From NCBI GenBank assembly GCA_964035545.1, contig OZ037772.1:9355150-9419149 (forward strand): 64,000 nucleotides of DNA, read 5' to 3'. This document shows, piece after piece, positions 1-53,382 of this stretch (position 1 is the stretch's first letter; every line of letters starts with the position of its first letter). The stretch comes from Bugula neritina. Taxonomy: Eukaryota; Animalia; Bryozoa. The notes beneath the pieces are model-generated. The model was not told the origin of the DNA, made no database searches, and saw only the letters and a list, made by a program, of their open reading frames with translations. Position numbers and translations under genes: made by a program.

Positions 1-1951
1 GGAGTCCGGTCAAGTCTTGGGGGGTGACCCAGTCTTCTATTGCCCGTACCTTCTCGGGATCCGTTGCCACGCCGTTTCGACCGACAACGTGCCCCAGGTA
101 CTTAACCTCTGGCTGCAATAGAGCGCACTTAGAAGGCTTGAGCTTAAGACCGGCACCTCGGAGTCTCTCAAAGACCTCCTGCAGACGACTGACATGTGTC
201 TCGAAGTCTGGGGAGATCACGATGACATCATCGAGGTAGATCAGCAGTGTCTTCCAGTGGAGCCCGCTGAGGACTTGCTTCATCAGCCTCTGGAAGGTGG
301 CTGGGGCGGAGGTCAACCCGAAAGGCAGCACCTTCCACTTCCACAACCCGTCCCGTGTGATAAACGCCGCTTTCTCTTGGGCGTCGGGACTCAGAGGAAC
401 TTGCCAATAGCCGCTTAGCAAGTCTAACGTACTGAAGTACTTGCTGCCGGCTAGGGCATCCAATGACTCGTCAATACGAGGTAGAGGGTAGGCGTCCTGT
501 ATGGTTACGCTATTGAGTTTGCGGTAATCCACACAGAACCGCCAACTGCCGTCTTTCTTCCGGACCAGTACGACTGGCGAGCTCCACGCACTATGGGCGG
601 GCTCTATCAGTCCCCGGTCCAGAAGATCCCGTACTTGTCGGCTAACCTCCTTCTCTTTCTCCGGCCCCAGCCTGCGTGTGGGCTGCCGGACAGGGACTGT
701 CCCTGCAGTCAGCGGTATTTCGTGTCTGACAATTCCAGTCAGTCCCACGTCATGCTCTCCGCTGCTGAACACATCACCGTAGTCGCGTAGTAACTTAGCC
801 ATAACTTGGCGTTCTCTGTTACTCGCGCAGCCGCTACAGGCTGTGTCATACAACTCCCGGAGATGTGCGGGGACTGCCCCTCGCCCTTGAGTAGGGCACT
901 GAGGAAGTGCCTCTGCCGCATCACCCAGCGACGGGCCTACGTCTTTCTCCTGAACAGAGTGAAAACGGCCCAGCATCGACCCAGCCGGGAGCTTGATAGA
1001 CTCGGTAAAGGGGTTGACGCACTGCACTAAGATCTCCCCTTGCTCAGTCAGCTGATTCAGACTGCTGGCAAGTTGGATCTTTTCGTGCGCGCCTTCAACT
1101 ACCCCGAGTCCAGAGATCCGGCTATTATTCACCCTGCAGTGAATGGTAGCCCGGGAGCGGCCTGGTATGATACGGTTGCGTACCACTTGCACACCTCCCA
1201 CTAAAGGGCGGCCGAACTTGTCGACGCAGGCGAGTTCCCGCCCGGACATCATCATTGCAGATTTGCTAAAATCTATGTGACATCCGTGCCGTTTTAGGAA
1301 CGGCATCCTGAGGATGGCATCGTCCTTGAGCTGACTGACGATGAACGTCTCTTGGATCGTTTGATCACGGACTTGTCCCGTCAGCTCAATTATACCATAG
1401 AAGGGAAGGCACGACCCGTCAGCTAGGGTGCCGTACTCCCCTTCGTATGATTCCATCTCGCCCCTGACCCTAGCACTGAGGGTGTCGAAGAGTTGGCGGC
1501 TTAAGAGGTTCGTGGTACAGCCCGAATCAATAAGGAAAGTAACAGCTTTGCCTTCCAGTTTACCGGGCAAGAAATAGCTGTTCCCATGAGGCTGCACCTG
1601 AACTCTCTCTTCAGGCCTTACTCTCGCAGGGAGTACCTCCCTCGCTTTGGGTCGCGAAGGAGGTCTCTTGGGGCGGTGGTAGGTAGGCCTCGGGGGTGCC
1701 GAGGTTAGATTCTCGGCTACCTTTGTGGGCTCCCATCCAGATTCTTGGGCTTGTAGCCCTGCGAATCTGTTGTGAAGGGGCATAGAAAAGGCAGCCGCGG
1801 GGCGAAGCCCCTTGCTGGTCCGTCGTGGCTGTTGCCACTGTTGGTTGCCAGTACGCGGTACCCGTCTGGGTGACCTGCGTTTCTTCTTCCCTGGGGGTTT
1901 CATCGTCGGCCCGCAGGAGGTGGGAACATCTGCGGGCCGCGGTAGTTTAAC
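1..1951 (-). CDS. pol: Pol (protease-RT) of Gypsy 1, -1 frame relative to gag, open to window edge
   Basis: Manual translation from the slippery site: VKLPRPADVPTSCGPTMKPPG...QPHGNSYFLPGKLEGKAVTFLIDSGCTT..., with RT YLDD further on. No stop-terminated ORF is listed in this frame. Confidence 0.85.
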
Positions 1952-2854
1952 CCCTGATTTAGGAAGGGACAGTATCGGCGGAAATGCCCTTGATTTCCGC
2001 ACTCCCAGCAAAAGCTGACTGTTTCTCCCTGTGGCGGCGCCGGTGGCCGCATGGGCTCAGGGGCGGTACTCACTGGGGTTTGTGGTGTCAGTGTTGCTAT
2101 CAGCTTGGCTAGCATGTCTGTCAGTTGAGTGACTTTCGATGCCGTCGCCAACTGGGACACGGCAGCCGCGGCGGGGGTTTCCTCCCCTTGTCCCGCGGCC
2201 GTGTCTGCGCGGTCTATCTCCACTTGACGGGAGCTTCCGCGACTTTTATGCATTTGATTAGCTAGGAGGTAAGCTTCCCCCTCAGTCAGAGCATCTTCAA
2301 CGGTGGTGACTCCCCTAGCTAGAAACTGGTGGTGGAGACCCAGATCGTCGACAGATGCTATGAAAGCGTCGAGGGTATACCTCTCGCGGTTGACTGGGGG
2401 CAAGTCGCTGTACGCGATCTGTGCCAGCTTCATGACCGCGGCGGCGTGCTCCCGCAGCGGGGTGCGGGGATCACGCCGCAACCTCTGCAATCGGGCCCTG
2501 GCATCTGTAGCAGAGAGGCCGAAGCGGGCCCGCAGAGAAGCAAAGATGTTATCAATGTCTACGCCCAGCCCATAAGGCTTGGCTTTGTCCATCAATGCCA
2601 TTCTAAGCTTCAGCAAGGCCACCCTAGGGGGCCACTGGGCGACGTCCATTACGTCGCTAAACTCTTGGATAAATTGTTCCACCTCCTCTTCACCCGTGAA
2701 GGTGGGCGCCTTTAACCGGTAGCGGTCTTCAGTTAGTTCTCGCGGAACCCTTTCTCTCTTCTACTACATGGTTAACAGGCATTGTCTCTACAGCATTGTC
2801 TCTACGCTCACCTTCTACTGCCGGTGGTTGAGTTCCAGCATTTTCAGTCTCCAT
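1900..2854 (-). pseudogene. gag: Gag of Gypsy 1 with an apparent 1-nt frameshift near 2750
   Basis: ORF 1900-2682 has CWECGNQGHFRRYC. The ATG at 2854 (METENAG...) is 172 nt upstream of the ORF start, so 1 nt out of frame, whereas the homologous gag at 16471-17421 is continuous. Confidence 0.8.
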
Positions 2855-2866
2855 CTTGGATGCACT

Positions 2867-2884
2867 ATCCCACCGCTGCCACCA
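2867..2884 (-). promoter_or_regulatory. Primer binding site complementary to tRNA-Leu 3' end
   Basis: Plus strand ATCCCACCGCTGCCACCA matches the 3' 18 nt (with CCA) of metazoan tRNA-Leu(AAG/UAG). It lies 1 nt from the LTR, with identical copies at 17438-17455 and 59514-59531. Confidence 0.88.
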
Positions 2885-4246
2885 CTGTTATAATTTTCAG
2901 ATTTAGGGTTGATATGCTGTCCAGAGAGTCTATTTATTTGCTATAGAACTGCACCAGGATAAGTCGAGTGAACGAGTATATTTTACACACAATTATACAT
3001 TATAAAAACGATACATTACATCCAGACAAGTTATACATCTAATCTATTTGACACTCTAGCTTCGACTGACTTAGCAGCGGGAAACTATAATTGCTGCTAA
3101 CTATCCAATACGCTAATTGGCTATCCATTGTTCCGGGTCAATTACGCGACCCTACATGTTGTGCTGCTGGTAGTTCCACGAACCACCACAATATGAATAT
3201 ATCAATATATAGGAGCTCTTATTTGTTAAATTATCAAGATAATTGCTGGCCTTTAAAAATGCATTGCCATTTTATGAAAAGTTGTAATGTATTTTTTTTA
3301 GGATTAAAATGGAAATATTGTTTTTTTATTTCGTCTGGCACTTGACTATATCATAGTTTATTAATGAGAATTACTAGCTTGTTTTTATTCTCAAAAAGCA
3401 GTTATAATGGTGGTGGGGGCAATGACTTAGTGAACACAAAGCCATAGGTTCAAATTGAAGTGAAGCTATTGCAGATGTTAAGAAGAGCATTCAGTCATAA
3501 CAGTTTATACTTTGCCACAATAGAAAACAAGTTCTTACCAACATATTTCTATGGATGCAGTATTTGTCTACAAATTAGACAATAGCTTAGAATATGCACA
3601 GGAAAAGATAATTATTTTTCATTATTATAGAAATACACTATGCTACACTTTAATTTGCTTGCTTGTTATGGAAATTTTATTTTTATTAAAAAATAAAACT
3701 CAATGTTATTATACACCATTCACACCAAAACTAATTGATATTTTATTAATAATAATTAATAATCAATAATTAACAAATTACTCACTAAACTCAGAGTTTA
3801 AGTGATACAAGTTGAAATAAACTCAGAAGATAGGCACATGTTTTAATAAATTATAAAACTTAAGATTAATACAAAAAAATAAAAAACAATTCTTGTATTT
3901 TTACAAATGCTGTAAATTAAGAAACGCAAAGAAAAAAAACAAGCAAGATGTTTACAACATGCATTAATTGCAACTCATAAATGACGCATTTTAAGCTGGA
4001 AAATTGTTTCGTGAAAAATTCTGTATTAATCATATTTAGCATATAGCATAAAGTATAATTATTTTAGTTTTAAAATTACTTGGTAGAGTAAGTGAAGTAA
4101 GTGTGCATTAAATCTTAAAATATAGCAGTTTGTTCTTATGAATTCTTTTGATAAATAATTTATCCTATCAAAAATGTTTGCATCATACAAAAGTGAAAAT
4201 AGTAGCTAACATATTGTGAACTAATAACGGTCTTCTTATTTCCTCT

Positions 4247-12195: not shown

Positions 12196-13183
12196 ACAGG
12201 CGGGAGGGGGAGGGAGGGAGGGTGTTATAATTTATCATATATTGTTATTATGGTTTTTTTTAGAAATAAAAATAATTAATTGTCCAACAAGATTGTTTCT
12301 TCAGTTTGCGTAACACATTCTATTCTTATTGTAAATAACGTTGAACAGCCATTACATTGTAACAGCTTTATATATTATGAATAATTTGTATCTGTTTTTA
12401 AACAAGCATTATATGAGTGAGCTTTTTGCTATCGGGCCTGCACTTGAAGCATTTCGAAAGTAGTTTATTATGTTTTACAGATAAATTAAATATGACTTTA
12501 TTGAAGAATTTGTCTAAAAAAAGACAATATAGCATATAGAGTAGTAATTTGTGCAATTACTGTGCGTGAGTTATCTACTTGCGTATAGTTAGTTAGTTAT
12601 CCTGCTAGTAATTACTAGGGTAGCTGTCGAGTAATTATATTTATTATCCACAATAAAGCATAAAATAAACATCACATCAAATTATCCTAAACATCAGTCA
12701 ACTACTAATACATGTTTCTCCTTCAAGCCTCCGCTTACAACAACGTGATATAATGTTAATAGCCCGGGAAGTGTCACGTGAATCGGAAGCATATCTTCCG
12801 GAGCTGCTAATTGGTTGCTACATAAGGGCTAAGTATTCCAAGAGTAGGGAGAGGGCGATTCCCGTATTTGTACTTTGCACTACTCACTACACCGCCCCCC
12901 CAGCAGAAAGCCCTACTTTCTGATAACACAATAAAAAAACACATAATGAAAAACTATACAATAATCCAAAAAGAAAAACATACATAAGTAAACCCACAAA
13001 GAGTAAGAAGAGAAATAGTTGGGCACGACAACATTTACATTAGAAGACAACAGGGTGATCGATCACACACATCTAGTCAGCTATAAAGAGAGAGGGTGCT
13101 TACCAGCACGCGGGCCAATGTCGGAGCACTCGTTACTTTCCAGACGAGTTACAGCTCAACGAAGGTGCCTACCCCAGGCATTC

Positions 13184-14241
13184 TCATTGGGTGGACTCTG
13201 ATTCTTGTAGCGATCGTGCTCTGTGTCGAGCCTGTCGGGCACGTAGCCGCCTCTTCAGTCGCCCCACTGAGTCCTTCAACTGGTATAGACCTGTCGTCGT
13301 ATCCAGCAGGTCAGGGGCAAGTTGTGTGAACTCGGCTTGTAGTCTTACAAGCCGCTCTTCTACATTAGCCAGCTGGCTAGGCCTTGGCGGGGTTGTAGTA
13401 GTCTCTGTTAGAGGGGGTATTGTTGTTTCTTCTACTTCTGGGGTGTTGCTAGGGTTGACGGGGGTAGGAGACGGGCCCTGAACCATAGGGGACTTATGGC
13501 GGGCGGATAGCAGCAGTACGTGGAACCCTGACGCTAGTGCGGCCAGGGTGATAGCCTTCCTGATGACTGGCTTGATGGCATCCAGGTATAGGGGGAAACT
13601 GTCCTCATCAACAGTGTGGTTCTCTCCGGCGAAGCAGCTCAGCTTATGTACTGTCACGGGATACGGGTAGACGTCGTGGAACCCGCAGGGACAGAAGTGG
13701 AGTAGGAAATGGGCGTCTACATGTAAACGCAGGGAGCGGTGTGACGGGCACTCCTCAAAGCAGACCTGGCAGGTTCGGTGGGGTCCACTGGGTCCCCAGG
13801 CTTCCTCAATTCTCCTTTCCGTCGTGGGTGACACCCAACGGTGTCGTCGACGGAGCACCACGGGTATGCCATTCTCCATGACAGGCTCCTCTTCCATAGG
13901 CAGAGAGGTTGGCTGGTCCCGTGACCGGGAGGTGGTCACTCGAGTGTGATCTGAAAGAGTAGCAGTGTTAAAGATTATACACTGAGGTACCGTCGGCGTG
14001 TACAGCCTGACCGGTACTCTGTTCAGTTACACTCGTGAGATTCAGGCTAATGAATAGTTGATGGAGAACACACTCGCTATGACAGATTATTTAAAATCAA
14101 AGTCGACGTGTATTCCCACCACTGTTTATCATTATCGAATCTCCAGCTCGCTAGCTAGTGTAGCTAAAGCTGACTGATGCAGTCTAGTTATCGTACCAAA
14201 AACATAATTAACTCACCCTTCGATCCAGAATAGTAAGACAT
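13184..14241 (-). CDS. Two-exon accessory gene of Gypsy 2: C2H2 + C2HC zinc fingers, Pro/Thr linker, coiled coil and basic tail (~263 aa)
   Basis: Exon 1 14241-14217 (AAA ATG, MSYYSGSK+G), donor GTGAGT 14216-14211, acceptor CTCTTTCAG ending 13951, exon 2 13950-13184 in matching phase (ORF track 13184-13939). Confidence 0.75.
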
Positions 14242-14264
14242 TTTGGAATGAGAGCGGTAAATGA

Positions 14265-16522
14265 TTACTGTTTACTGGCACGTCTACTCTTGACTGCATC
14301 AACATAGGAAAAGACCGGACAGCGTGGTTGTGAAACGTGACTAGGGCTTTTCACTTCCAGCGGATGAATCTCGTGTGAGATTCCGCCGAGGCAAAAGTTG
14401 AGATTCTCGTGGTGATCACAACTCCCACGGCTCTTTGCCTGTTTTCCCATGCGAGGCCTCTCTAGACTTTCGTTACTGCCGCTTATACCGCGGTCACGTA
14501 CACAGTCTCTGAGACACGCTGGAAGTTGCCTAGTGTGTGGTCCTGGTCCTACGTTGGTATCTCCTTGCGGAGCCCCTCCTACGGGGGGTTTTTGCACTTC
14601 CGGACCTGTTTCTGGTTCCGGAAGTGGTGATGATGGCAGGCTTGACGTTGGGGGCGGTGGGCGCACTTTCAAGGACGGAAGTGGCCTTTCTCGCCTCGCC
14701 AAGTCTTCCTGACGTGTCATGGAGGTGTTTCCGGCCAGGTTGACAGTCTCCGCCTGCCGAGACCTTCTCGCACAATGCGTCTGCCGCCCCGCTTCACCAG
14801 GGAGACGGCTATGCTTGTTGGTCCGGCAGACTTTGCACCGTCTCACTCTGCGTCGGATATCCCGTTCCATGTTGGGCCAGTACCACCGGAGTTGTAGCTT
14901 GGTGACCACCCCTTGGACTCCTCCGTGAGTCTCCTCGTGGGTGTCTTGTATCAACTTCCGGCGGATGGTAACTGGGCAGACAACCCTCTTCCTGGCTGGC
15001 TGTCTGCTGTTGGCGGCCAAGGTCATGGTCAGCAGACCATCTGGCCCGACCCGCAGAGAGCTCCAACGTTGACAGTACAGCCGTAACTCGGCGCATCCCT
15101 GTCGCCGTTGTTTACTACTGGGTCGTCGCCCTTCCTGTTTCGCTCGGTACACGTCGGCTACCACCCCAGGAAGGCATTCCTGGAGCTTCGGCAGCTCCCT
15201 AACGTTACCAGCCCATACAGGTTTGGCGCGGAGGCTCTGGACAGCCTCCGGGGGCGTGTCAGCCCTCTGTTGGAGTAGCTGAGCAGGGGCGGTCCTCGCC
15301 GCCCGTGGTACCTCACGACAGCCTGCTCTATTTAGGCGGGCTCCGTGGTCTGTGTGGCGGAACGCCTCACTGTACCCATGTGGCAACCTAGCCATAGCCT
15401 GGCGCTTCCCGTTGCTTGTGCAGCCACGCGTCCCTGGAGGAGGGAGGGGTGGGTTGGGACGGTCCTCCGCCCTCGAGACGGGCTCTGCTGAGGACCTTCC
15501 GTCGTAGCTCCCGACGACGACCCAATGGCTTCCTCCTGGACAGGATGGAAGCGACCCAGCATGGATCTGGGTGGTAGGTCTACTGTCTCTGAGAAGGGGT
15601 TGACACACTGCACTGAGATCTCTCCTTGTCCCGTAAGCCGGCTAAAGCTATGGGCAAGTTGGACTCTCGAGTGCGTACTTTCGACAACTCTCAACTTAGA
15701 GGTTTGGCCACCGTCTACCTTGCAGCGGACGGTAGCCCGGGAGTGGCCTGGTATAGTACAGCTCCGTACTACCTGCACTGCTCCCGCTAGAGGACGACCA
15801 AACTTATCGACACAAGCGAGCTCCTTGTCGCCCATGATCATCGCAGATTTACTGAGATCGATGCGACAACCGTGTCGTTGTAAGAATGGCATCCCGAGGA
15901 TAGCATCCTCGTTGAGCTGCCCGACGATAAACGTCTCTTGGATGGCCTGGTTACGGACGTAACCAGTTAGCTCAATAATGCCGTAGAAGGGAATGCACGA
16001 CCCGTCTGCCAGGGTGCCATGATCCCCCTCATACGGTGCCAACCCGTCCTTGACCTTAGCGCTGAGGGTGTCAAAGAACTGACGGCTAAGGAGGTTGGTG
16101 GTGCAGCCTGAGTCCAGGAGGAAGTTGGCAGGCTTGCCGGCTAGCTTTTCTGGTAGGAAGTAGCTACTTCCGTGTGGCTGCAATTGTGTATGCCGTGGTT
16201 GCACCTCCCTCGCTGTGGCTCGAGGGGTCCACGGTTGGCGGCGACTATTGACCAGCTGCCGAGGTTGGGGCGGTACGCCTTGCGGCGCCTGTACCGTATC
16301 CCTCGCAGGCTCTGTGGTCAACCGTCTGCCGGCTCCGTGTTGGTGCTGGAGTGGCGTAGAGGACCCAGGCGGCGAGTGGCTTGAGCCTACTTGCCGCGGG
16401 GGTCGCCACTTCACAGCATCTCCGCGCGGCGCCCAGCGGGGCGACAGACGCGCGGGCCTCCCTGGGTGATTCACAGACGGCCCGCAGGAGGTGGGAACAT
16501 CTGCGGGCCGTGGTAGTTTAAC
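14265..16522 (-). pseudogene. pol: Internally deleted pol of Gypsy 2: protease and integrase HHCC domain only
   Basis: Protease LLDSGC; frame change near 15430; then joined directly to the pre-IN linker and H-x3-H...C-x2-C. RT, RNase H and the DDE core are absent compared with ORF 54647-58543. Confidence 0.88.
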
Positions 16523-17421
16523 CCTTGTGGGAGCTGAGGGCAGTTCCTCTGGAAATGTCCTGGCCTTCCGCATCCCCAGCAGAAGTGGTGCCCCATGCCT
16601 GGTGATTGTACCTGCGGCCCGCAAGGCTCACGGGCAGTATCTACCTGGCCTGGGGAAGCTAATGTGGTGACCAGTTTATCTAGCATGTCGGTCATCTGTG
16701 CGACTTTTGACGCTAGTGACATCTGGTTCACATTAGCCACCGCGGAGGGTTCCGCGTTTGGTTCGGCGTGAGCAGTAGTGTGCTCCGTGGTCACCTGGCG
16801 GGAGGCCACGCGGTTGCGGTGCATATGAGTCGCCAAGAGGTAGGCTTCTCCCACCGCAAGTGCATCTTCGACTGTGGTGACTCCTCTTGCTTGGAATTGA
16901 TGGTGGAGCCCCAAGTCGTTGATGGACTGCACGAAGGCATCATAAGTATACCTCTCACGGTGTACTGGAGGCAGATCGCGGAACGCGATCTGCGCTAGTG
17001 GGTACACCGTGGCAGCGTGCTCTTCTAGCGACGTGTGAGGATCACGCCGCATCCTTTGTAGACGGGCCCGCGCATCAATGGGAGAGATGCCAAAACGGGC
17101 CCACAGAGAAGCAAAGATTCCGTCTATGTCAGGTCCCGCTCCGTACGGCTTAGCTTTGCCCGCCAGCGCCATCCTGAGCTTTAGCAACGCCACCCTTGGT
17201 GGCCACTCTGCAATCTCCATCACATCTTGGAATTCTTGGATAAACTGCTCCACTGCTTCTTCGCCGGTGAAGGTGGGCACCTTCAGCCGGTATCTGTCTT
17301 CACCATGCTCTCTAAAAATTCTCACTTCTTCATCTAACACCACTGGTTCCACAGGTATATCAACATTATCTCTCTCACCTTCATTCAGTGGAACGGGTAG
17401 CTCCGTGCCGTCTTCTGCCAT
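16471..17421 (-). CDS. gag: Gag of Gypsy 2
   Basis: Uninterrupted ORF with PTFTGEEAVEQF and CCHC knuckle CWGCGRPGHFQRNC. Confidence 0.92.
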   Translation of the reverse strand: MAEDGTELPVPLNEGERDNVDIPVEPVVLDEEVRIFREHGEDRYRLKVPTFTGEEAVEQFIQEFQDVMEIAEWPPRVALLKLRMALAGKAKPYGAGPDIDGIFASLWARFGISPIDARARLQRMRRDPHTSLEEHAATVYPLAQIAFRDLPPVHRERYTYDAFVQSINDLGLHHQFQARGVTTVEDALAVGEAYLLATHMHRNRVASRQVTTEHTTAHAEPNAEPSAVANVNQMSLASKVAQMTDMLDKLVTTLASPGQVDTAREPCGPQVQSPGMGHHFCWGCGRPGHFQRNCPQLPQGLNYHGPQMFPPPAGRL

Positions 17422-18232
17422 GACTGCTATACGCAAGATCCCACCGCTGCCACCACTGTAGTAATTTGTGCAATTACTGTGCGTGAGTTATCTACTTGCG
17501 TATAGTTAGTTAGTTATCCTGCTAGTAATTACTAGGGTAGCTGTCGAGTAATTATATTTATTATCCACAATAAAGCATAAAATAAACATCACATCAAATT
17601 ATCCTAAACATCAGTCAACTACTAATACATGTTTCTCCTTCAAGCCTCCGCTTACAACAACGTGATATAATGTTAATAGCCCGGGAAGTGTCACGTGAAT
17701 CGGAAGCATATCTTTCGGAGCTGCTAATTGGTTGCTACATAAGGGCTAAGTATTCCAAGAGTAGGGAGAGGGCGATTCCCGTATTTGTACTTTGCACTAC
17801 TCACTACAATAGCACGCATGCATACTTGTATTATATAATTAGCTTGAATGATTACAGAAATACAATGTAATACACCCTAGTGAAATAATTTTCTTTTTAA
17901 AGCTAGATTTCAATGAAACAGAATATGCAACCCTATAATGAAACCCAAATTATGCCCTAGTGTTTACTCAACAAGATAGTTGCAAAAAATAAATTGCTAA
18001 AGGTGAAACAATATTGGTCATGCAATAAAAGCTGAATTCAAACATCACACATATGTACATAATTTAAGCATCAATCAAGTTAAGTAAACAAAAAAAATAA
18101 TAAATGCATTGTATTTGTTGCATAGTAAATTGTGTTTTCAAAACTTGCAATTTTGAAAATATAATATTATAGTATTGGCCATTCACATTGATAGTATACT
18201 GATTGGACTTGGCTCTAACTCATCACTTCTTT

Positions 18233-28900: not shown

Positions 28901-31900
28901 TCAATATCTATTTCATGGTGAGATTCTTTGTAAAGGGCATTGTGAGCCTGAAAGAAACATAATAAAAACTGCTATGCTTTTTGAAAAATGAAAGAGCTCA
29001 GTCTTATAATAGTTATAGAGCCAGGGATGTTTGAGTATTAAATTTGAAGATGCATGCACATGTATAGTGAACCAAAACTTGAAATGGATATGTATTTATA
29101 GGCTGGATCCTTGGCATGCTGCAGTTAAAAATTAAACTTATCTGAACAACTATATGATCTGGACTCAACAGACCACTTATGACACATGACATCCATTTTG
29201 AATTTGTTTCAAATCATACCTGGGTCATTCCACGTCAACTCAACCAATGGCCCACGCCTTTGCGTCTCAGATTTTGTTCATATTTACACCAAATGGACCT
29301 ACACATGTCCTGAGTACTATTCTTGAATATTTCTGGCCTGACACAAAAACTTTTTGAGAAATAATTATTTTCATGTACAAAGGTTGGGAAAAATTTTGAG
29401 TAAAATTTGCGATTTTTACTTTTAGACCAATTTGTAAACGTTCATATCTCCATTATTTTTCTAGACTGAGCCTTAAAATTTGGTGTGTGATTTGATAACA
29501 CCTATCAATTTGCACTAGTAGTAACACATACTGCAGAATACTTTGCATGCATATATGCTAAGCCATTGAATATTGGCAAATTTTTATGAATTTTGAAAAA
29601 TTTCGATTATTTGCCACATCACAAAAGGCGTTAATTTTCATTTTACTTCTATAAATTTTTATCCATAAATAGTTGATTATGGCTACTTTATACTCCTTAA
29701 TTTGTGTACTTTTGAAAATAATATTTTCCGAGATATAGACACCCAAAGTGAAGAAAATGTGAAAATTCGCCCAACTTCACAAGGATGTAACCCGATGTTT
29801 GAATACAGTAAAATCTTTCAAACAAGCATTTTCTGTAATGTCATTTAGTGTATTTTGTAGATTCATAAATTTGGACATCCTTATATTGTCCAAACTTGAA
29901 GTAAATCGCCTGGAAAAATGGTATGCGTACAAAAATCGGCAAAATGCAATTTTTCAATATAATATGTTGGGATCATACATTTTTTATTATTCATATTGTT
30001 CAAAATATCAAGTAGATACATATATGTTTCCTATATATATCAAATCTACTGAAGATTACGATAAAATCTGATTTGTGTGTAATATCGTAAGAAAAATTCT
30101 GCCGATCGGCATTATATGATATTCCCATTAGGTTTCAGGTAGCAATTGTTATTTCGATCTGTGAGTGAATGGTGTGAAACAGCTGAAATCTTGCTGGAAT
30201 CAAGTACATTAAGTAGCTGAGGCAAGGGTAGCTTCAAAAAACATACCCAAATAAAACACCATGGCCCTGAACACAATAGGCCTAATTAATTCGATGACGG
30301 TGGTGTTTAATACATGCCGGAAATAATTGTGGCTTTTGAAACAGATGTGCCTAAATATAGCAAAATGGCCCTAACCTCGCCCTAATTTGGTCAGTACTGG
30401 TTAAAGAATCAAGTAATTGGCATCATGCCATGTCCAATGTTCATCATTCTGAAAAAATTTACAACTCTCTTTTTTATAACTGAAAGCAATGGTCTTCCAA
30501 CTTTAATATCTGGTTCACACAGAACTCCTTTTGCAGTCTTCTGGCTTGCTGTGCAAGGTAATTGTTGGGTTTTTACATAGGCTGGGAAAGCTTTTTCCTA
30601 ATACATGATAGCTTTTCACATGTCATCTCAGCTATATTATGCTTTTCCATTTTCATTATAGCTAATACACAAAAGCTAACTTTTTTACGACTATAAAGAC
30701 TCAGCAGTTTTTCTCTTATCCAGACTTGCATTTCACACCTGTACTGGCAACTTGTAACTCATGAGATAACCTTTTTTTACGTTGCTATTTCTTCAGTCTG
30801 CTACTATAATAAATATTTATTTCTCTAACTTAAAACACAACGATAATTGTTTACTCCAAATTCTATAGATGTCTTATCAATGGTCCAGCTTTCTGGTGCC
30901 AATGTCAATAACTGGACCTTCTTTTGTCCCAAAGAAACTTTCACCTTATTCAAGGAACATATTATAATATGTTCAAATCTTTATGATTAATAGGCTTTAT
31001 ACAGGCATTTGTTGCTTCTGGGTGGAGTTCCTCTCCCTCTATACTTGCAACTGTGGCAACCTTCTTAGCAATGACCTCCTCCACTTGATTCTGTTTTTTT
31101 CCATAGTTCACTCTACTGGAAGGGCTAATTTTTAGGGCTCTTCTGGTATAATTCTACTCCTTTGAACTGTAGAAACTGAGAGAAACTGTGCAATATTAAT
31201 TGCTTCAAAAAAAGCTGAGCTCTCAGAATACTCTCAGGAAACTGAAAGTGATGCATTTCTTGAAGTTGAGAAGGAGGCACAGACACTAAACACTGGAATG
31301 ACAGAATTGGGAGCTCCTCCCGTGAAAGTTGCAAAAATTAGCCCATCCGCAGTAAAGTGAGCTATAAGAAAAAAAAACGAAAGAAAGTGCAGGAGGTCAT
31401 TACTGAAAAGGTAGAAACAGTCTTTGGCATAGATGAAGAAGAACTCCACCCAGAAGCAACAAATGTCTGTATGAAGCGTAGTAATCATAAAGATTTGAAC
31501 AAATTGATGATCCTTGATCCTTGAATATAAGGTAAAGTAAAGTTGGTAGACCATTCTCTCCACATTTAAAAGAAAAAGTTGTAGATCTTTTCAGGATGAT
31601 GAATATTATTCTTAGCCTGGGCAAATTACTTACCTGATTAGGGTGCGGACCAATCTGCTATATTTAGGCACATCTGTTTCAAAAGCCACAATTATTTCCG
31701 GCATGTATTAAACACCACCGTCATCGAATTAATTAGGCCTATTGTGTTCAGGGCCATGGTGTTTTATTTGGGTATGTTTTTTGAAGCTACCCTTGCCTCA
31801 GCTACTTAATGTACTTGATTCCAGCAAGATTTCAGCTGTTTCACACCATTCACTCACAGAAATAACAATTGCTACCTGAAACCTAATGGGAATATCATAT

Positions 31901-33713
31901 AATGCCGATCGGCAGAATTTTTCTTACGATATTACACACAAACCAGATTTTATCGTAATCTTCAGTAGATTTGATATATATAGGAAACATATATGTATCT
32001 ACTTGATATTTTGAACAATATGAATAATAAAAAATGTATGATCCCAACATATTATATTGAAAAATTGCATTTTGCCGATTTTTGTACGCATACCATTTTT
32101 CCGTGCGATTTACTTCAAGTTTGGACAATATAAGGACGTCCAAATTTATGAATCTACAAAATACACTAAATGACGTTACAGAAAATGCTTGTTTGAAAGA
32201 TTTTACTGTATTCAAACATCGGGTTACATCCTTGTGAAGTTGGGCGAATTTTCACATTTTCTTCACTTTGGGTGTCTATATCTCGGAAAATATTTTTTTC
32301 AAAATTACACAAATTAAGGAGTATAAAGTAGCCAATATCAACTATTTATGGATAAAAATTTATAGAAGTAAAATGAAAATTAACGCCTTTTGTGATGTGG
32401 CAAATAATCGAAATTTTTCAAAATTTATAAAAATTTGCCAATATTCAATGGCTTAGCATATATGCATACAAAGTATTCTGCAGTATGTGTTACTACTAGT
32501 GCAAATTGATAGGTGTTATCAAATCACACACCAAATTTTAAGGCTCAGTCTAGAAAAATAATGGAGATATGAACGTTTACAAATTGGTCTAAAAGTAAAA
32601 ATCGCAAATTTTACTCAAAATTTTTCCCAACCTTTGTACATGAAAATATTCATTTCTCAAAAAGTTTTTGTGTCAGACCAGAAATATTCAAGAATAGTAC
32701 TCAGGACATGTGTAGGTCCATTTGATGTAAATATGAACAAAATCTGAGACGCAAAGGCGTGGGACTTTCTGAAATTTGGTTGATTTGACATGGAATGACC
32801 CACCTTTGAACTATAAAAAAAAACTCATGCAAGTTTATAGTCACTATCTCTGTGAGAAGCCCCTGATAGAAGGGGTTTTTGTTAAAGCAAGCTAACGACT
32901 TATTTAAATGAGGCACAGGAGCAATTATGACTGGATGCTCTTCCTAACATCACCGATAGTCTTTGTCCGGGCTCAAACCCATGACCTAGGCAAACGCTCT
33001 AATTTCTAGACCAGGGGTGCTATACCTAGCTTTAAACGATACAGTAACATTAAAAATTTTTCACTTCGTATTTTCATGAAGTGAAATAGAATTTTTACCT
33101 TTTGATGGCCAGTACAAAGTTTGTCTCCACATGTAATGCAAAAGCAAGTGGCAATTTCACCTTGACATCCATAAGCTGTACAATATAGCATATCCAAGTC
33201 AAGCTTGTAATCTTTAGTTTCAACTTTCTTTAGTTCTTCAAAGTTGAGGTTTTCATGTACCATCCTGTAATCACATGTGTATTTTCATACCTTGATTCTT
33301 ATAGTATATTAGTTTTTCTACAGGGAGCAGAGCATATTTTTAACATTCTATCTATTTTGTGATAGTTTTAACTTAAACCTACAGAAAAACGTTGAGAACT
33401 AAGATGAGACTGTCAGCCATTGACTGATAAAAACTTCATCTTTGCTTCAACTTGACTCTTTCGTTGGCAGTCAAATAAAAGTTGTAGGTATATAAACCAT
33501 ATACTATATATGAAAATTCAATTCCTTATAACTCACTGACCCACAATTGGGACACTTTACAGTGCCTTGTTGGTTGTAGTATCCTTCAATACAACTCAAA
33601 CAGAATACATGCTGACAAAGCAGCTCTCTTGGATCTATCATAGACTCTGTTTTGGATGCACAGAAACCACATTGATAAACTGAGGGCAAGTGTTGGACAG
33701 CCATCTTGCTCAT
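25908..33713 (-). CDS. TRIM-like gene copy C, apparently intact E3 ligase (RING-Bbox-Bbox-CC-beta-propeller)
   Basis: Approximate exons: RING 33541-33713, B-box1 33099-33264, B-box2 28767-28947, CC1 27711-27911, CC2 27286-27554, propeller 26234-26896, last 25908-26035. No stops seen and splice phases are compatible. Confidence 0.8.
28115..28737. mobile_element. MITE with ~20-bp TIRs, containing a nested ~175-bp hairpin MITE (28298-28472)
   Basis: GGTTTCATCTCACTCAGACG...CGTCTAAGTGAGATGACACC. The inner element has imperfect ~65-bp inverted arms built on GGTAAAAATRGCACA-like subrepeats. Confidence 0.65.
29222..32801. mobile_element. Sola2-like non-autonomous DNA transposon with ~1.14-kb TIRs, in an intron of copy C
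   Basis: Arms 29222-30362 and 31656-32801; termini GGGTCATTCC/GGAATGACCC; 4-bp TSD ACCT; empty site in the paralog at ~50012; transposase-like remnants KVQLLTLAPESW (minus) and LGAPPVK (plus). The Sola2 call rests on GRG termini, 4-bp TSD and long TIRs. Confidence 0.85.
32808..33005 (-). mobile_element. tRNA-SINE-like repeat (paralog ~50015-50215)
   Basis: The reverse complement shares CATGGGTTTGAGCCC, GGTGATGTTAGGAAGAGCATCCAGTCATAATTG and GACTATAAACTTG with 63185-63395. Confidence 0.65.
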
Positions 33714-41786: not shown

Positions 41787-44700
41787 TATAGAATGACACT
41801 CTTTGCTATGACTCTTGCTTTAGAGTGACACTCTAGCTTATACAGCCTGACTAGGAATAGGGAGGGTTTTAGACGTGATCAGAGTTTATTTGAGTCACCA
41901 AATGTTGATCAAATACTGACCAAACACTGACCAAACACTGACCGTAAAAACTAAAATAATAATGATACAACATAAGGCATAAGGCAAACAAAATGTACGT
42001 AATATAATAAGTATGTATGTAAAAGCACTAGCAATGTATATCATAAATTGTAGATAGCAGCATGAAATAATGATTCAACATAGCATGCAACTACAGCCCA
42101 TATTATTAAAACTTTATAACATAAAAATGTAATCACAATATATATATATTTTGTAAATAGTAGTTTATTACCTCTTTTCTCTCTCTCCTAGTCTACTGTT
42201 ATGTTAATGCTGTGGCTTTGCACAGTCTTTCAAATAATGCTACTCTTTAGTAGTCTTACATAAACTTAATGCTGTCCAAACTGACAGCATGACTCTAACA
42301 ATCTTGCAACTACTAAAAATGGTTTTGTCTTATATACTAATCCATTTGATAAACATTATTGTGTTGTAAGAGGTATGATTTTACAATTTACTATTTTGGG
42401 GTGGGATCTTACTGTTTCAAGAAGTGGGCTGAAGTAAACAAGCATGTGTGACATCACAGCTGATGCAAGCATAACTGCTGACTATGAATCATTCTACATG
42501 CGTAGCTACTGTTTTGGGGTAGTAATTAAAGAAGCATTAGGTTGACTACTGGCAGCTAGTGGTTATAGGCTAATTTGAGGTTGATGACATTGTGATTGTG
42601 TGTGATTGTACTACAAGTTATAATTTCTGTAAACATCCTATTTCGTAACATTACACTCCCCCCTTTAATTTCTCTCTATTCACTTAGAGGGAATTAACAA
42701 TTATATTATTATGCATTTAAAATACTAATGTAGGTATGCATGCAAAGGTTATGGGGTAAATAGGTAAATTAATTTGTGGATAGGCCTATCTAAGTATGTG
42801 GGTGGAGCTAGTCTCACATCTTTACTGTTCAACTCTGTAGTTGCTAGTTGTACTTTTACCTTACGAATTAGGTCATCTCAGTTTTATGTGTTTCTATCTT
42901 ACTTACACAATTGTCTTTACTTAGCCTGTAATATTCATCTAAAAATGACTCTTTTTGTACCCACTGCATTATAAGATGTTTAGCATCTGTCAAGTCAATA
43001 ATTGTGAGTCTGGGAGTTATGCTACCTTTATGCTTTACTAATCTTTTTCTTTTTGGGGTGATACACGCCAAAGTGGGGAATGTACCACTGATGGTTGCTT
43101 GCCTCACAAGTTGTAGGTACCAATTCTGCATCGCCATTGTTTGTTATGTCTGTCATGAATGCCACGTAGTCTGTTCCATATTCCTGGTCTTTAAGCATTT
43201 TAGTTTTGAGGGTATCAAGTCTGTGCACAGCTAATTGTCTATTGTTTGGTAATTGTGGCTTAGCATTTTTAAAGGGCAGTGGCATGCTGTAATAATTGTC
43301 TTCTCTTTGTTTAATATTGTTACGCATGTTATCTAAAAACTTGGCATCTTCCTGTGACATTTTATGAGAAGCAATGCACTTTGTGTCAGTATAATCTTGC
43401 TGTAGGACATTCAAGATATCTGAGCACAAGTTCTGCTCATGAGCCATAGCCCTATTGCATGTGGGAAATGAGTTTGTTTCATGCTTACCACTATTGCCTA
43501 CAATACACCATCCTAGAGGTGTTCTCAGAGCAAAGGGATCATTGATTGCAGGGCCTATTTTAGTTTCAAGTGGCACTAAAGCTCTGGAGTTGTCATACCC
43601 TATAAGCATTCCTATCTCTATATCTAAACTTTGAGGTATTTCACCTGCAATGCATTTAAGGTGTGGCCATCTATTGGCAATTTCTGGTGTGGGTATGTGC
43701 TGCTTGTTAATTGGAATGCTGTCCCTACTGTAAGTCTTTCCTACTTGTATCTGCTCATGCATGTTCAGTCCTCTAATGGTCAAGTTATTGTACACCTTAC
43801 ACTTCATTTCCAAGTTGTCAGCTGTCATTGTTGTTAGTTTAAGAGAAACTGGTTTGCTTGTAGCTGTTTGTAGCTTACTAACAACTCGGTTGGTTACAAA
43901 TGTGGTATCTGACATGCTATCTAAGAGTGCATAAGTTAGCACTTCCTCATCTGGGTTATCTACAGTTGCTAGGTATATAGGCACAACCATTGAGCACAAG
44001 CCATTTGTTTTAGTCACTGTATTGTTGCTGTTAGCTGTTACTTGCTCTGGGTTGTTGCTACTTGCTAATTCATTTACCTGCACTGTTTCTACATTGGTAT
44101 TGCTGTTGTTAGCTTGTGTAGCTGGCTGATTGCTTCTATGTGTTACAGTAGGATGCCTTTTTTGGCATATTTTACAAGTAGCTCTATTTCTGCATTCTTT
44201 TGTCATGTGACCTATTCTCAAGCAACCAAAGCATAATCTTTTACTAGTAATGAACTGTTGTTTTTGATCAACTGGTATGCTAGCCAGTTTTCTACACTCA
44301 TGTGTGCTATGATTACTGTAATTGCAGTAGAGGCATAGTTTAGCTTTGTGATTTTCTGTACTTTTAACATCAGGAGAATGCTTTTCCATGCTAGTAGCAA
44401 AGCTAATGCCCTTGTTGTTGTGCTTTTGAGGCTTATGTGAGTCTATGACCCTTGAACCTGACAAAGATGAAGTGATTGGATCATTTAGGATTTCTGCTTC
44501 TGTTTGTACAAACTTTACAAACTGACTAAAACTGGGGTAACTCCTGTGATTTTTCCTATGTGTGGTTACCTCCCGCTTCCATCTGTTTATCATGTTATCT
44601 GGCAGCTTGGACATGAGCTCAAGATTCTTTTCGCAATCATTTAAAATTTCCAACTCTTTAATATCTTTTGCTGCTATTTCGCAATGTGTGAGGAAGTCAG

Positions 44701-47240
44701 AAAATGATTGTATCTGCTTATGTTCATGTGGTTTCATTTTGGGCCAAGCATTAATTTTCTTTCGAAATTCATTAGCAACTGTGAATTCTGACCCAAATCT
44801 TTCTTTCAAAATTATTCTGGCCTTTTGGTATGCTGCTAGTGTATGTAAACTGCATAGGCCACTAATTGCTTCTCTAGCAGGTCCATCAACATGCTGTTTC
44901 AAGACATACATTTTACCACCATCACCTATCATTTTATCCTTGATGTAACTCTCTATGGCATATTCCCAATCTATAAAGTCTAAGGGATTTCCCTTAAATA
45001 TTGGTGGCTTCGGCACATTGTTGGCTTGTATTGCTTTTGTTAAGCATGTGGCCAGGTATTCATTACTGCATGTAGAATGCTGTGATTCATTGTTTTGCAT
45101 GCTGCCTATTTGCTGTGGTTGGTTGCTTTGCAAAACTTCTACTGGCCTACTAAAAATAACTTCACTATTGCTTTCCTGATTCACTATTGGTTGGCAATTA
45201 TCTAAATACTCTGCTAGCTCATCTCTAACATCTACATCATGTTCCTCTATTATTTCCTGCCTTATTCTCAGTTGTTTCTGTTTTTCTAACAGCTTACTTT
45301 TACTTAATTCCAACTGGACATTGGCTAACTGCCTTTCTAGCTCAGCCTGTCTTTGCATGGCTTCCATTTCAATTTCTAATTGTGCAACTTGCAATTTTGT
45401 CTTGGCTGAGATGAATGAGCTTGCTTTTGATGTGTGTTTACTGCTAGCATGTACTGAATGGCTTTCGCCCTTACATTGTTCATGTATACTGTTAATTTGC
45501 TGTGTTAAGTCCTCAAGGTGAGGATGACTTGGAGCTAATGACTTTAGAATTGCTAAGTCAGCATCTGCATCTAACATAATTCGTTGTATGTCATCCCAAA
45601 ATTCATTATCATGATTGTCTGTTGCTGCATGCCTACTTCTAAACCTTTTAATTGCACTTGTGACAGATTTAAACCTTTTTTCTACCTCTAATTGTTTTCC
45701 CTTTGTAGATAGGGTTTTGACTCGGCTGCTAATCCTAATGCTATTACTACATGTGGATGTGTCATCATTCATTGTTGCTGTGTTAGTAATAGAGACAGTT
45801 AGTGAAAAGCATGCATTTACTTACTACAGCTATTTTATAACCTAAATTCAGTAGGAAAACTAGTTTGAACTAGTTTGTCAAGAACTATCACTAGCCAACA
45901 GCTAATGCAAACAAACAGCTGATGCCAGCACAGGGATTGCACCCAACTGCCCAATCAGAAACAGGGAGATCCTAATTGATTTTATGGGGCTTTGACACAA
46001 TGTCTATCAAATGGAGTTTCTATAATTACAATACTTCAAAAAATAAAACTGCATGCAAGCCTAACTGTTCTAATAACTTTCAATTCGACTATTTTCTTTA
46101 TAATTATGTCACTTATATGTGAAGGTGAGGGTTATATGGTAATCTCTCACCAATCTGCTGATTCCAGGTCACCTTTGTATGTAGTTGAGAGTAGTTGAAA
46201 ATAATCCTGATAAATGTTAGTAATGTTTATATAGTTGAGGTGGGTAGAAGTGAGGTTCTCTTTGTGGTCGTCTTATGTTTGTCGACTTCTTTTGTTGGAC
46301 TTGAGATGGAGCTTTTTCTCCCGGACTTGAGAAAGAGTTTTTACTCCCAGACTTTGAGAAAGAGTTTTTACTATAGAATGACACTCTTTGCTATGACTCT
46401 TGCTTTAGAGTGACACTCTAGCTTATACAGCCTGACTAGGAATAGGGAGGGTTTTAGACGTGATCAGAGTTTATTTGAGTCACCAAATGTTGATCAAATA
46501 CTGACCAAACACTGACCAAACACTGACCGTAAAAACTAAAATAATAATGATACAACATAAGGCATAAGGCAAACAAAATGTACGTAATATAATAAGTATG
46601 TATGTAAAAGCACTAGCAATGTATATCATAAATTGTAGATAGCAGCATGAAATAATGATTCAACATAGCATGCAACTACAGCCCATATTATTAAAACTTT
46701 ATAACATAAAAATGTAATCACAATATATATATATTTTGTAAATAGTAGTTTATTACCTCTTTTCTCTCTCTCCTAGTCTACTGTTATGTTAATGCTGTGG
46801 CTTTGCACAGTCTTTCAAATAATGCTACTCTTTAGTAGTCTTACATAAACTTAATGCTGTCCAAACTGACAGCATGACTCTAACAATCTTGCAACTACTA
46901 AAAATGGTTTTGTCTTATATACTAATCCATTTGATAAACATTATTGTGTTGTAAGAGGTATGATTTTACAATTTACTATTTTGGGGTGGGATCTTACTGT
47001 TTCAAGAAGTGGGCTGAAGTAAACAAGCATGTGTGACATCACAGCTGATGCAAGCATAACTGCTGACTATGAATCATTCTACATGCGTAGCTACTGTTTT
47101 GGGGTAGTAATTAAAGAAGCATTAGGTTGACTACTGGCAGCTAGTGGTTATAGGCTAATTTGAGGTTGATGACATTGTGATTGTGTGTGATTGTACTACA
47201 AGTTATAATTTCTGTAAACATCCTATTTCGTAACATTACA
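41787..47240 (-). mobile_element. Internally deleted BEL/Pao LTR retrotransposon
   Basis: 869-bp LTRs at 41787-42655 and 46372-47240, apparently identical; 5-bp TSD CAGGG; PPT AAAGGGGGAG at 42656-42665; empty site at ~23912. Confidence 0.95.
43028..45772 (-). CDS. BEL/Pao Gag-protease polyprotein truncated at the start of RT
   Basis: 914 aa with FKGNPLDF, three Cys-His knuckles (CLYC, CFGC, CKIC), protease YALLDSMS and RT start WYIPHFGVYHPKK. Only remnants follow (LIMQWVQKE; IRKVKV...RPIHKL). Confidence 0.9.
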   Translation of the reverse strand: MNDDTSTCSNSIRISSRVKTLSTKGKQLEVEKRFKSVTSAIKRFRSRHAATDNHDNEFWDDIQRIMLDADADLAILKSLAPSHPHLEDLTQQINSIHEQCKGESHSVHASSKHTSKASSFISAKTKLQVAQLEIEMEAMQRQAELERQLANVQLELSKSKLLEKQKQLRIRQEIIEEHDVDVRDELAEYLDNCQPIVNQESNSEVIFSRPVEVLQSNQPQQIGSMQNNESQHSTCSNEYLATCLTKAIQANNVPKPPIFKGNPLDFIDWEYAIESYIKDKMIGDGGKMYVLKQHVDGPAREAISGLCSLHTLAAYQKARIILKERFGSEFTVANEFRKKINAWPKMKPHEHKQIQSFSDFLTHCEIAAKDIKELEILNDCEKNLELMSKLPDNMINRWKREVTTHRKNHRSYPSFSQFVKFVQTEAEILNDPITSSLSGSRVIDSHKPQKHNNKGISFATSMEKHSPDVKSTENHKAKLCLYCNYSNHSTHECRKLASIPVDQKQQFITSKRLCFGCLRIGHMTKECRNRATCKICQKRHPTVTHRSNQPATQANNSNTNVETVQVNELASSNNPEQVTANSNNTVTKTNGLCSMVVPIYLATVDNPDEEVLTYALLDSMSDTTFVTNRVVSKLQTATSKPVSLKLTTMTADNLEMKCKVYNNLTIRGLNMHEQIQVGKTYSRDSIPINKQHIPTPEIANRWPHLKCIAGEIPQSLDIEIGMLIGYDNSRALVPLETKIGPAINDPFALRTPLGWCIVGNSGKHETNSFPTCNRAMAHEQNLCSDILNVLQQDYTDTKCIASHKMSQEDAKFLDNMRNNIKQREDNYYSMPLPFKNAKPQLPNNRQLAVHRLDTLKTKMLKDQEYGTDYVAFMTDITNNGDAELVPTTCEASNHQWYIPHFGVYHPKKKKISKA

Positions 47241-50922: not shown

Positions 50923-53193
50923 AATATTACGATGGAGTCAAGATCTAAAACCTTAGGCAGCTAAATAAACAGCTAAGATGTTTTCAGGTTTGATAAAATA
51001 ATATATGAGATACAAATAATGCAAAACTGCTATTTATAGATGAAATAAACATCAAAGATTAGTTTTAGCTCAAATTCTATAGATATCAATAAGACAAATC
51101 TAGTATAACTTCCAAACATTGCAGAACAAGTAAATAAACAATAATTGATTTTTCACTAAAATTAAAGGATTTATGTAATGAAAAGAAAGTCTTTAAAAGC
51201 AAGACAGGTCTTTCTTTAAAACTGAATGCATGCTTTCAATGACAATTTTGTTTAGTATGTAAAAAAATCCAAGTATAAAATAAAATTTGCACTAACTGAC
51301 AGTTGGGCAATCAATCAACAACTCTATCTCACAAATATCATACCTACCTTGAAGAAGGATTAATGACCGCTGGTTTGATTGCGGCAGAAATACCACCATG
51401 CAAACAGTCAGGCAATCTACTTATATATAATACGAGATTAATTTTTTAAGTGCAGGTAAAAGATTTACCTAGTAGTAGCTAAAATATAAGCCAACTGCTA
51501 GTATAAACTGCTACAATGGCTATGTTTTAGAATGTTATACTACCTGTAATCAGCAGCTATATTCATTAATGTAAGCAAGTGTAATGCTTAAGGTTAATAA
51601 GCTAGTCATAGAGTTAGTACCATATTGACTGTATCTCAGAACATTTATTTCTCAATGCACAGGGTTAAACTAATAAAACCTATAATCAATAAATATAGTG
51701 CGGAGGCTAAAAGGGGAACCCCCAATTTATAAGCTAAGCACAATCACTTAGATTATCAAATTCAATAGAGTGTCTCAATAGAGTATAAGTGATGTATTGA
51801 ATTGTAGCACAATACAAAATATTGATTACAGCTAAACAATAATATATTATATTTAGGTTAATTGTGTGTTCACCTGCTTATAAATAACTTTAAATATACA
51901 GCAGGTAATAGTAAACTAGGCTTAAGCTGCACACATTTAGTTATCCTTCAGCACAATGCTATACGGATATATCAATATATAGGAGCTTTTATTTGTTGAA
52001 TTATCAAGCTAATTGCATGCCTTTTAAAAATGCAGCGTCATTGTATAAAATGTTGTAATGTGCTATTTTACAAAATTAATATAGAAATACTGTTTTTTTA
52101 TTTCGTTTGGTAATTGACCATATCATAGTTTATTGATGAGAATTACTAGCTTGTTTTTATTCTCAAAAAGCAGCTTATATAATGATAAGGTGGTTGGGGC
52201 AATGACTATAAGTGAACACAAAGCCATAGGTTCAAATTGAAGTGAAGCTATTGCAGATGTTAAGAAGAGCATTCAGTCATAACAGTTTATACTTTGCCAC
52301 AATAGAAAACAAGTTCTTACCAACATATTGTAGTGAATTTTGCCAGTTCACTATTATTATTTGTGGGTCTACTTAATCAAAGCCACTGCGACAGGTTGTT
52401 TACGATAAGATACTTTATTATTTACACAAATACAAGAAGGTTATTTACTGCTAGCATGAATAGAAAACGATTACATAATTAGTGAGCTTTAATACACAAC
52501 TGTTCTAAATGAAGTCCCAAGCTGCTCTGCCGGCTAGCTACTCAGCGCACTGCAACTACGAGTAGCTAGCTCCACCTGCTATCAATTAGTGTCACTGTCC
52601 TGATTGGTGGCTACTAATGGTGCCACTACTGTCCATAGTTACACTCCGACAGTGTCGAACTCACAAGATACATAAAACAATATAGAGTAAACCTTTTCGA
52701 TTAATACAATATACTTGCACCACTAAAATCTACCACACTCGCCACACCTATCGAAAAGTACACTCTACGATTGATGCACATAATCTCAAAAAAATAACAA
52801 AAGGAATAAAGGCAAAATAAAACAAAAAGATCAAAACCACCAGGAATGAGAGAACACAAAATATGTATTCAAAACGATGTCCATGTTGTACACGATCGAT
52901 CCGGGTCAGTCACAGGGTAGGGGGGGGGAATCTCTTCACCAAATGATGTAGGGTAGCATGAACTTAGTGAAAAGGAGATGTACTGCTTCACACTCGTCTA
53001 GTCGAAGCCAAGCGATGGGGGAATCGATGAGTCCCCAGAAGAATCAAGCGTGGCAAAGGAGTCTCTCCCAAAGGGGGGAGAGAGTGGAAGGAATCTCTCC
53101 AAAGGGGGGAAAGATGGAGGGGGGGTTGACTGGTCTCTTTACTACCAACGTCTACCTCGTCGCCGTCGAATTCCCAAAAGGAAGAAAGGGAAG

Positions 53194-53382
53194 ACTTCTT
53201 CTTCTTAACTTCTATTTTTCTTTTTACTTCATGCAGGAATCTTTAATATTACTTCTTTTTCTTAACTTCTATTTTTACTTTTTAACTTCATGCAGGAATC
53301 TTTAGTATTACTTCTTCTTCTTAACTTCTATTTTTACTTTTTAACTTCATGCAGGAATCTTTAATATTACTTCTTCTTCTTA
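53194..53382. repeat. 59-bp tandem repeat (~3.2 copies) in the 3' UTR of Gypsy 3
   Basis: ATGCAGG recurs at 53231, 53290 and 53349. Confidence 0.92.

Follow-up and report, generated by a model that had tools for sequence, protein, structure and literature searches.

The sequence evidence supports a genuine, conserved and spliced accessory gene in a lineage of Gypsy retrotransposons, the product of which is not an envelope protein and belongs to no known family. The gene is located in a 64,000-nucleotide stretch of Bugula neritina DNA (the window), within a Gypsy LTR element of 5,269 bp (12540–17808), all features of which are on the minus strand. The 352-nucleotide 5′ LTR (17457–17808) has TG...CA ends, and the 3′ LTR (12540–12891) is preceded by a G-rich polypurine tract. 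Two of the 352 bases differ between the LTRs, and the target duplication CTAT lies outside both of them, which agrees with the near-identical LTRs and target site duplication claimed in a preliminary description of this DNA. The terminus of the 3′ LTR at 12540 is CT, not CA; the 5′ LTR ends with CA. The primer-binding site (17438–17455) was assigned from sequence, starts with TGG, and presumably matches tRNA-Leu.

The gag frame (16471–17421) is open and encodes a C-terminal CCHC knuckle (Pfam zf-CCHC, E = 5e-4, marginally under the cut-off). The 5′ part of pol (15332–16627) encodes an aspartyl protease, and the reverse transcriptase and RNase H are absent from it. The remnant of pol (14265–15272) contains the integrase H2C2 domain and a tail, ends with the stop codon TAA at 14267–14265, and has the integrase core deleted near 14715. 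The missing reverse transcriptase and RNase H, and the missing integrase core, were identified by comparison with the intact pol of the related element B from the same window (52329–59832, minus strand), which has an open gag, a 1,310-codon pol with the full PR-RT-RH-IN order, and matching LTR ends. Judged by its LTRs, primer-binding site, polypurine tract, target site duplication, and gag, the element with the zinc-finger gene is a non-autonomous Ty3/Gypsy LTR retrotransposon.

A 139-nucleotide contig (14661–14799) from the public sequencing run X1, characterized below, bridges the integrase-core deletion without a difference at a depth of 4,535. In the related protein P0092, the same deletion junction recurs at 55% identity, although the match extends upstream of it by no more than about ten residues. 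Together, they indicate the amplification of a non-autonomous lineage in which gag, protease, and the finger gene are retained. The intact accessory frame next to a gutted pol, to which the preliminary description drew attention, was seen again, but the gutting is common to an amplified family rather than private decay of one copy.

The accessory gene is a sense ORF flanked by the pol remnant and the 3′ LTR; its sequence points to expression through splicing. A 25-nucleotide micro-exon (14217–14241), formed by eight codons plus one nucleotide from the ATG at 14241, is followed by a GT..AG intron of 266 nucleotides (13951–14216), which has the donor G/GTGAGT at 14216 and a CAG acceptor. Exon 2 (13184–13950, 767 nucleotides) is open and in phase, and continues for 254 codons past the junction codon to a TGA. 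The arrangement of an ATG after the pol stop, micro-exon, donor, intron, acceptor, and in-phase second exon had been proposed before, and its coordinates are confirmed on the minus strand; the ORF length given as 251 has to be corrected, as the product measures 263 amino acids (792 coding nucleotides including the stop). The GC content of the intron is 42%, compared to 57–59% in the flanking coding DNA.

The product can be divided into a conserved folded domain (13493–13870, exon-2 residues ~27–152), a variable Pro/Thr-rich linker (13379–13495, residues 152–190), and a coiled coil with an Arg-rich tail (13214–13372), and contains all the motifs listed for it previously. The folded domain includes, at 13634–13771, a C2H2 finger with the pattern C60-x2-C63-x12-H76-x3-H80 and an atypical finger C86-x-C88-x12-H101-x3-C105 (exon-2 numbering). 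The coiled coil is formed by a heptad repeat at residues 193–238, in which 12 of the 14 a/d positions are hydrophobic. The tail has nine Arg or Lys and zero Asp or Glu across 19 residues, a composition by which it qualifies as an Arg-rich motif with putative RNA-binding activity. Eight matches to a generic leucine-rich NES-like pattern are located in the folded domain or the heptad. A Pfam scan of exon 2 returned a single match, to ATG16, which at E 0.053 fell well short of the cut-off, and the window protein has no Pfam C2H2 match despite the motif of finger 1. ARAGORN detected 0 genes.

Splicing into a common acceptor

Of the sampled words, 61% occur in sequencing run X1, the type of which is unrecorded. 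The listing of runs showed none of RNA, a negative that has no bearing on expression. A contig from X1 skips exactly positions 13951–14216 (joint 13950–14217), with CT..AC ends on the plus strand. The joint was seen at both 85% and 95% likeness, and at 95% likeness it is the sole joint in 7,001 bases. It comes from one contig in one run, with a short side of 29+1 letters, slightly under the bridging guide of the tool, and X1 possibly has the same source as the window. The intron-less contig carries two substitutions relative to the window and has a depth of 843, about ten times the single-copy depth, given that contigs from the host gene and the flank have depths of 64–84.

We read X1 as DNA because the border of the LTR and its flank is crossed by a contig without difference, the putative introns of the host gene are covered at similar depth without spliced joints, and an empty site is present. 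The empty-site joint skips 5,273 bases with a 4-base overlap, in agreement with the CTAT duplication. If X1 is DNA, there are approximately ten integrated intron-less copies per single copy, and their formation needs splicing, packaging, and reverse transcription. If X1 is RNA instead, the 13950–14217 joint is direct evidence of splicing. In addition, the donor at 14216 ties for the best consensus match among the 312 GT sites in the element. These sequences directly support the 266-nucleotide intron as genuine, and spliced RNA has likely been copied back into the genome too. The earlier proposal that unspliced RNA was packaged holds for the window copy but is incomplete, since intron-less copies apparently exist in DNA, and spliced RNA was therefore likely packaged as well. 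Intron-less DNA copies enable splice sites to be read from genomes alone.

Four further, non-canonical deletions of 83, 86, 93, and 130 nucleotides at or inside the intron (13945–14204 of the window) were observed in X1 at depths of 120–1,478 and at 85% likeness only. They could originate from template jumps across hairpins. Part of the intron is thinly covered by X1 contigs.

The intron is predicted to fold strongly (z −4.5), and z ≤ −2 is reached by 22 of the 58 folding windows in the spliced-out region, compared to 3 of 28 elsewhere. However, the opposite strand of the intron folds nearly as strongly (z −3.9), and the segment after pol of element B more strongly (z −6.1). For this reason, the folding does not point specifically to a response element. 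The Rfam search returned 0 matches.

The sequences predict two splice forms of the gene, in which the micro-exon or a Gag leader is joined in phase to one acceptor. The Gag leader (17379–17421) comprises 14 codons plus one nucleotide and ends at the donor GTGAGA at 17378, in phase 1; this donor and that of the micro-exon are the two best consensus matches of the 312. The first 14 residues of P0009, one of the 120 listed homologs, match the start of the window Gag at 11 of 14 positions and are followed by an Asp and then directly by exon 2. The contig of P0009 is 5,320 bp long, whereas such a Gag-leader-spliced element would have 1,841 bp, and P0009 is therefore likely to come from an integrated copy. 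In the sister element C (window 1–2900, minus strand, truncated at the edge of the window), the same donor follows the corresponding 14 codons at 2811 and is the best of the 152 GT sites of that element. The donor is kept even though only 3 of 14 residues agree between the leader peptides of element C and the window. Of the 33 homologs that extend upstream, 32 have Ser or Leu before the junction residue. This is the expectation for a YAG acceptor and indicates that the acceptor is conserved. Translated sequence resembling the window intron is contained in P0002, P0007, P0047, and P0090.

Joining of the gag donor to the same acceptor would give one product an N-terminus in common with Gag. This form is represented by the single protein P0009, the first 40 residues of which, used as a query, returned P0009 only (1/1 candidates), and the Gag-leader joint is not among the joints shown for X1. 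The intron of the single-intron gene of the preliminary description is thus real, but the second donor, 14 codons into gag, had been overlooked. A three-exon mRNA with a middle exon placed in frame between the Gag leader and exon 2 was considered and rejected: going upstream, the frame of the micro-exon stays open no further than 14271, and the three acceptor candidates upstream all fall outside it.

Finger domain and its relatives

The AlphaFold2 model of residues 20–160, calculated from 88 rows, has a pLDDT of 93.8 and a pTM of 0.86, and all five models scored above 91. In the predicted structure, the two-finger domain has about 125 amino acids, and extra helices wrap around the finger pair. 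When the whole protein was modelled from 46 close rows, the result was poor (pLDDT 57) and added one long C-terminal helix. A two-copy complex model, in which the alignment was not used, had an uninformative score of 0.00. With the 141-residue domain model as query, neither PDB nor BFVD gave a Foldseek match at E ≤ 0.001, and VIA found none at Z ≥ 5 among 48,161 chains (best Z 3.9), an absence that does not establish a new fold. No G-protein-like match was found in the fold searches of the 141-residue domain.

The only coherent VIA rows were tandem C2H2 DNA-binding domains, which align over the finger pair (about 51–59 residues). The superpositions of the pair onto Kaiso (ZBTB33), SALL4, and CTCF, with rmsd 2.9–3.6 and Z 3.0–3.8, are weak and at background level. 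Profile matches were found to single C2H2 fingers of SALL3 (E 9e-6) and HIC2 (E 9e-6), and finger 1, but not finger 2, is predicted to be a classical C2H2 finger with the beta-beta-alpha fold. The protein thus resembles Kaiso, SALL4, and CTCF in its first finger by profile and in the pair by weak superposition. It differs from them in finger 2, a CxC-x12-H-x3-C finger with a variable last ligand, and in the placement of the pair within a larger helical domain without a whole-domain match.

A word-index search identified 134 close homologs from 1,982 candidates, and 128 matches were obtained when 1.84 billion representatives were searched with a profile; the relatives of the protein include the 134 close and about 70 distant ones. 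The 120 listed homologs (115 from JGI) are 50–96% identical and have neither a Pfam domain nor a name. Across 45 rows, mean pairwise identity reaches 0.73 for the fingers and 0.80 for the coiled coil and tail but 0.35 for the linker, as would be expected if the protein is under selection. In 65 distant rows, each of C60, C63, C86, C88, H76, H80, and H101 is kept in at least 61, whereas C105, the last ligand of finger 2, is Cys in 38. Position 71 is Arg or Lys in 57 of the 65 rows, and position 74 in 53. By a simple ad hoc score, the C-terminal heptad exceeds shuffles in 20 of the 35 distant rows in which the tail is of sufficient length.

Protein P0263 (1,460 residues) contains an RNase H and integrase 57% identical to the pol of element B, followed in frame by the finger domain and coiled coil, a layout indicating that in the distant branch, too, the gene occupies the 3′ position of a Gypsy element. 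In P0092, a pol tail is positioned upstream of the finger gene. Among 30 clusters looked up, the only ones named by organism were four uncharacterised clusters, which come from Watersipora subatra and Bugula neritina. The bryozoan relatives XP_067940963/4 and XP_067944745 (W. subatra) and KAF6040922/3 (B. neritina) have the same finger domain and often a C-terminal coiled coil, but they are longer, some contain two domains, and they may be either host genes or annotated elements. Three bryozoan proteins with the finger domain (P0190, P0255, and P0258), two of them from neighbouring Bugula loci, appear on inspection by eye to share a further N-terminal motif, which suggests a host gene family. 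The tree was calculated from 84 domain rows, with 12 close rows left out; 25 of its 80 branches are starred, and it therefore gives no direction of transfer between host and element.

The preliminary description did not recognise the architecture of the product, and this is borne out, as the protein has no Pfam family, no fold match, and only unnamed or uncharacterised relatives. Scans of metagenome, viral, and prokaryote contigs confirmed 0 of 595, 40, 20 and 202 pattern matches. A search for longer fused forms among proteins of 1,023–2,920 residues found 0 of 7,622 candidates, and is uninformative because it missed P0263. The literature, covered mostly at the level of listings and the beginnings of abstracts, contained no description of the domain or of a C2H2 third ORF in such elements. 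The two-finger domain is apparently undescribed.

Possible roles of the product

Few LTR elements have a shown route for intron-containing RNA out of the nucleus, and full-length RNA with strong splice sites needs a way past nuclear retention. The product of this conserved, spliced third gene of a Gypsy lineage is probably a nuclear nucleic-acid-binding regulator of the element. By analogy, it may act like Rev or CERV in exporting unspliced element RNA, a reading that is plausible, if short of probable, and that is favoured by the CERV-like layout, the Arg-rich tail, and the predicted structure of the spliced-out region. The likeness of the fingers to DNA-binding ones, the lack of the gene in element B, the folding of the control segments, and the generic nature of the NES-like matches speak against it. 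In such a mechanism, the LTR transcript would be spliced by default into a short mRNA encoding the finger protein, which would enter the nucleus by means of its basic tail, multimerise through the coiled coil, and bind structured RNA in the part removed by splicing. Export of the full-length RNA would then enable Gag translation and packaging. The spliced RNAs would retain the primer site, the polypurine tract, and both R ends, and their occasional packaging would give rise to intron-less DNA copies.

According to PMC10309623, CERV of the Caenorhabditis elegans Gypsy/Ty3 element Cer1 is the product of a spliced 3′ ORF and solves the export of unspliced RNA; this protein of 517 residues is encoded by five exons, contains a C4-type loop in addition to H, M, and G-protein-like domains, and reportedly lacks homologs beyond the nematodes. 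Both genes are non-envelope ORFs that lie after pol and before the 3′ LTR and are expressed from a spliced mRNA, and both encode an N-terminus in common with Gag (here indicated by one protein, P0009, and the conserved donor) and a Cys-rich putative zinc site together with a leucine zipper; the last exon of CERV is in frame with the polyprotein (PMC10309623). P0263 shows the same in-frame arrangement. In contrast, the finger protein, with its 263–269 residues, is half the size of CERV, is encoded by two exons, and has a C2H2 and an atypical finger and a C-terminal coiled coil. The likeness is one of layout, set out from the description of CERV and not from homology. CERV was the sole retrotransposon-encoded export case found in the literature search with the coverage given above, and if the export reading is true, the finger protein would be a second, apparently unrelated protein with the CERV layout, implying that Rev-like regulation arose repeatedly.

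Rev-type proteins are not known to have a C2H2 domain. Rev (PMC10309623, PMC7264820), like Rex and Rec, resembles the finger protein as a small product of a spliced subgenomic RNA with an Arg-rich motif, a multimerisation surface, and structured RNA in the spliced-out region, the last two being predicted for the finger protein; the likeness is one of features. The non-env ORF3s of bdelloid rotifer LTR elements (PMC5408684) and the sense aORFs of plants (PMC7264820) are also family-specific third ORFs after pol. They are typically expressed from spliced messages, and the third ORF is also kept in the non-autonomous family TelKA2n. They differ from the finger gene in being of env-like, GDSL, DEDDy, coiled-coil, or TM types, and the words "zinc" and "intron" have 0 occurrences in the main text of either source. 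Third ORFs described in published work encode env, GDSL, DEDDy, coiled-coil, TM, and sORF2 products (PMC5408684, PMC7264820, PMC13524379, PMC8220671, PMC11952523).

As the main alternative to exporting RNA, the product may be a DNA-binding transcriptional activator or anti-silencer, with its fingers on the LTR or internal DNA and the coiled coil dimerising or recruiting cofactors. This is possible, if on the unlikely side. The classical profile of finger 1, the best superposition of the pair onto tandem DNA-bound C2H2 domains, and the basic residues 71 and 74 of the distant rows speak for it, as do the chromosome-encoded bryozoan proteins, some of which carry two copies of the domain, as transcription factors often do. 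However, the superposition Z-scores are at background level, finger 2 is atypical, the pair is wrapped by extra helices, and activation explains the Gag-leader splice and the Arg-rich tail no better than export does. The coiled coil and basic tail would also suit a cytoplasmic RNA chaperone or particle-associated factor, which would form coiled-coil multimers and act in the packaging or traffic of its own RNA with cis preference. The fact that the amplified pol-deleted family has kept the gene alongside gag and protease, the form with a Gag N-terminus, and the in-frame position of the domain behind pol in P0263 are in line with such a role. Nevertheless, we consider it improbable, since a CCHC knuckle is already present in Gag, the gene is missing from element B, and a C2H2 finger with a basic tail more often has a nuclear function.

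It is very improbable that the gene is a neutrally captured fragment of a host gene or encodes an envelope or membrane protein. Host-annotated bryozoan proteins do share the domain, but its domain-shaped conservation among relatives and the position of the gene behind pol in the distant family argue against neutral capture. The most hydrophobic stretch of the product (19 residues) has a hydropathy of 1.56; however, the same stretch ranges from −0.07 to 1.56 across 46 rows, with the window protein highest, and falls within the globular domain of the structural model. A signal peptide, a transmembrane anchor, and a fusogen fold were looked for in the product and not found, its N-terminus is hydrophilic, the rows of close relatives have no conserved membrane segment, and the fold searches of the domain model gave no viral glycoprotein match. 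Together with the zinc-finger and coiled-coil models, these observations uphold the earlier claim that the product is not an envelope glycoprotein.

An extension of the export reading, which we regard as doubtful, is that the undescribed finger family could supply a Gypsy lineage widespread among marine invertebrates with a Rev-like switch for export. In this lineage, the pol-deleted family would trade gag and the regulator in trans with pol-bearing elements devoid of the regulator, and bryozoan hosts would have domesticated the domain. The gene provides a compact, well-modelled domain for testing, and even under the rival explanations, it would represent a new finger domain common to retroelements and uncharacterised bryozoan proteins.

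Neighbouring elements in the window

Sister element C has a gag 67% identical to that of the element with the finger gene and contains a reverse transcriptase region, which makes it a candidate pol-bearing partner. Element B has neither a homolog of the finger gene nor the gag donor; because its pol is intact and its LTR ends match, the lineage can apparently move without the gene in cis. Element B has its own donor, ATG/GTAAGT, at 53871 after pol and a possible acceptor near 53633, with no long ORF beyond. An antisense ORF of 117 codons in its 3′ region (52952–53305, plus strand) has no Pfam match, and the hydrophobic C-terminus it encodes arises from a threefold repeat of ~59 nucleotides.

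At ~4200–63800, about six TRIM-like host genes, each encoding a B-box, a coiled coil, and a beta-propeller-like part, are arranged in tandem and interspersed with mobile elements. An element at 29246–32768 has terminal inverted repeats of about 1.1 kb that are 98% complementary. Identical direct repeats of at least 300 nucleotides, located 4,585 apart at 41787–46671, probably belong to an LTR element.
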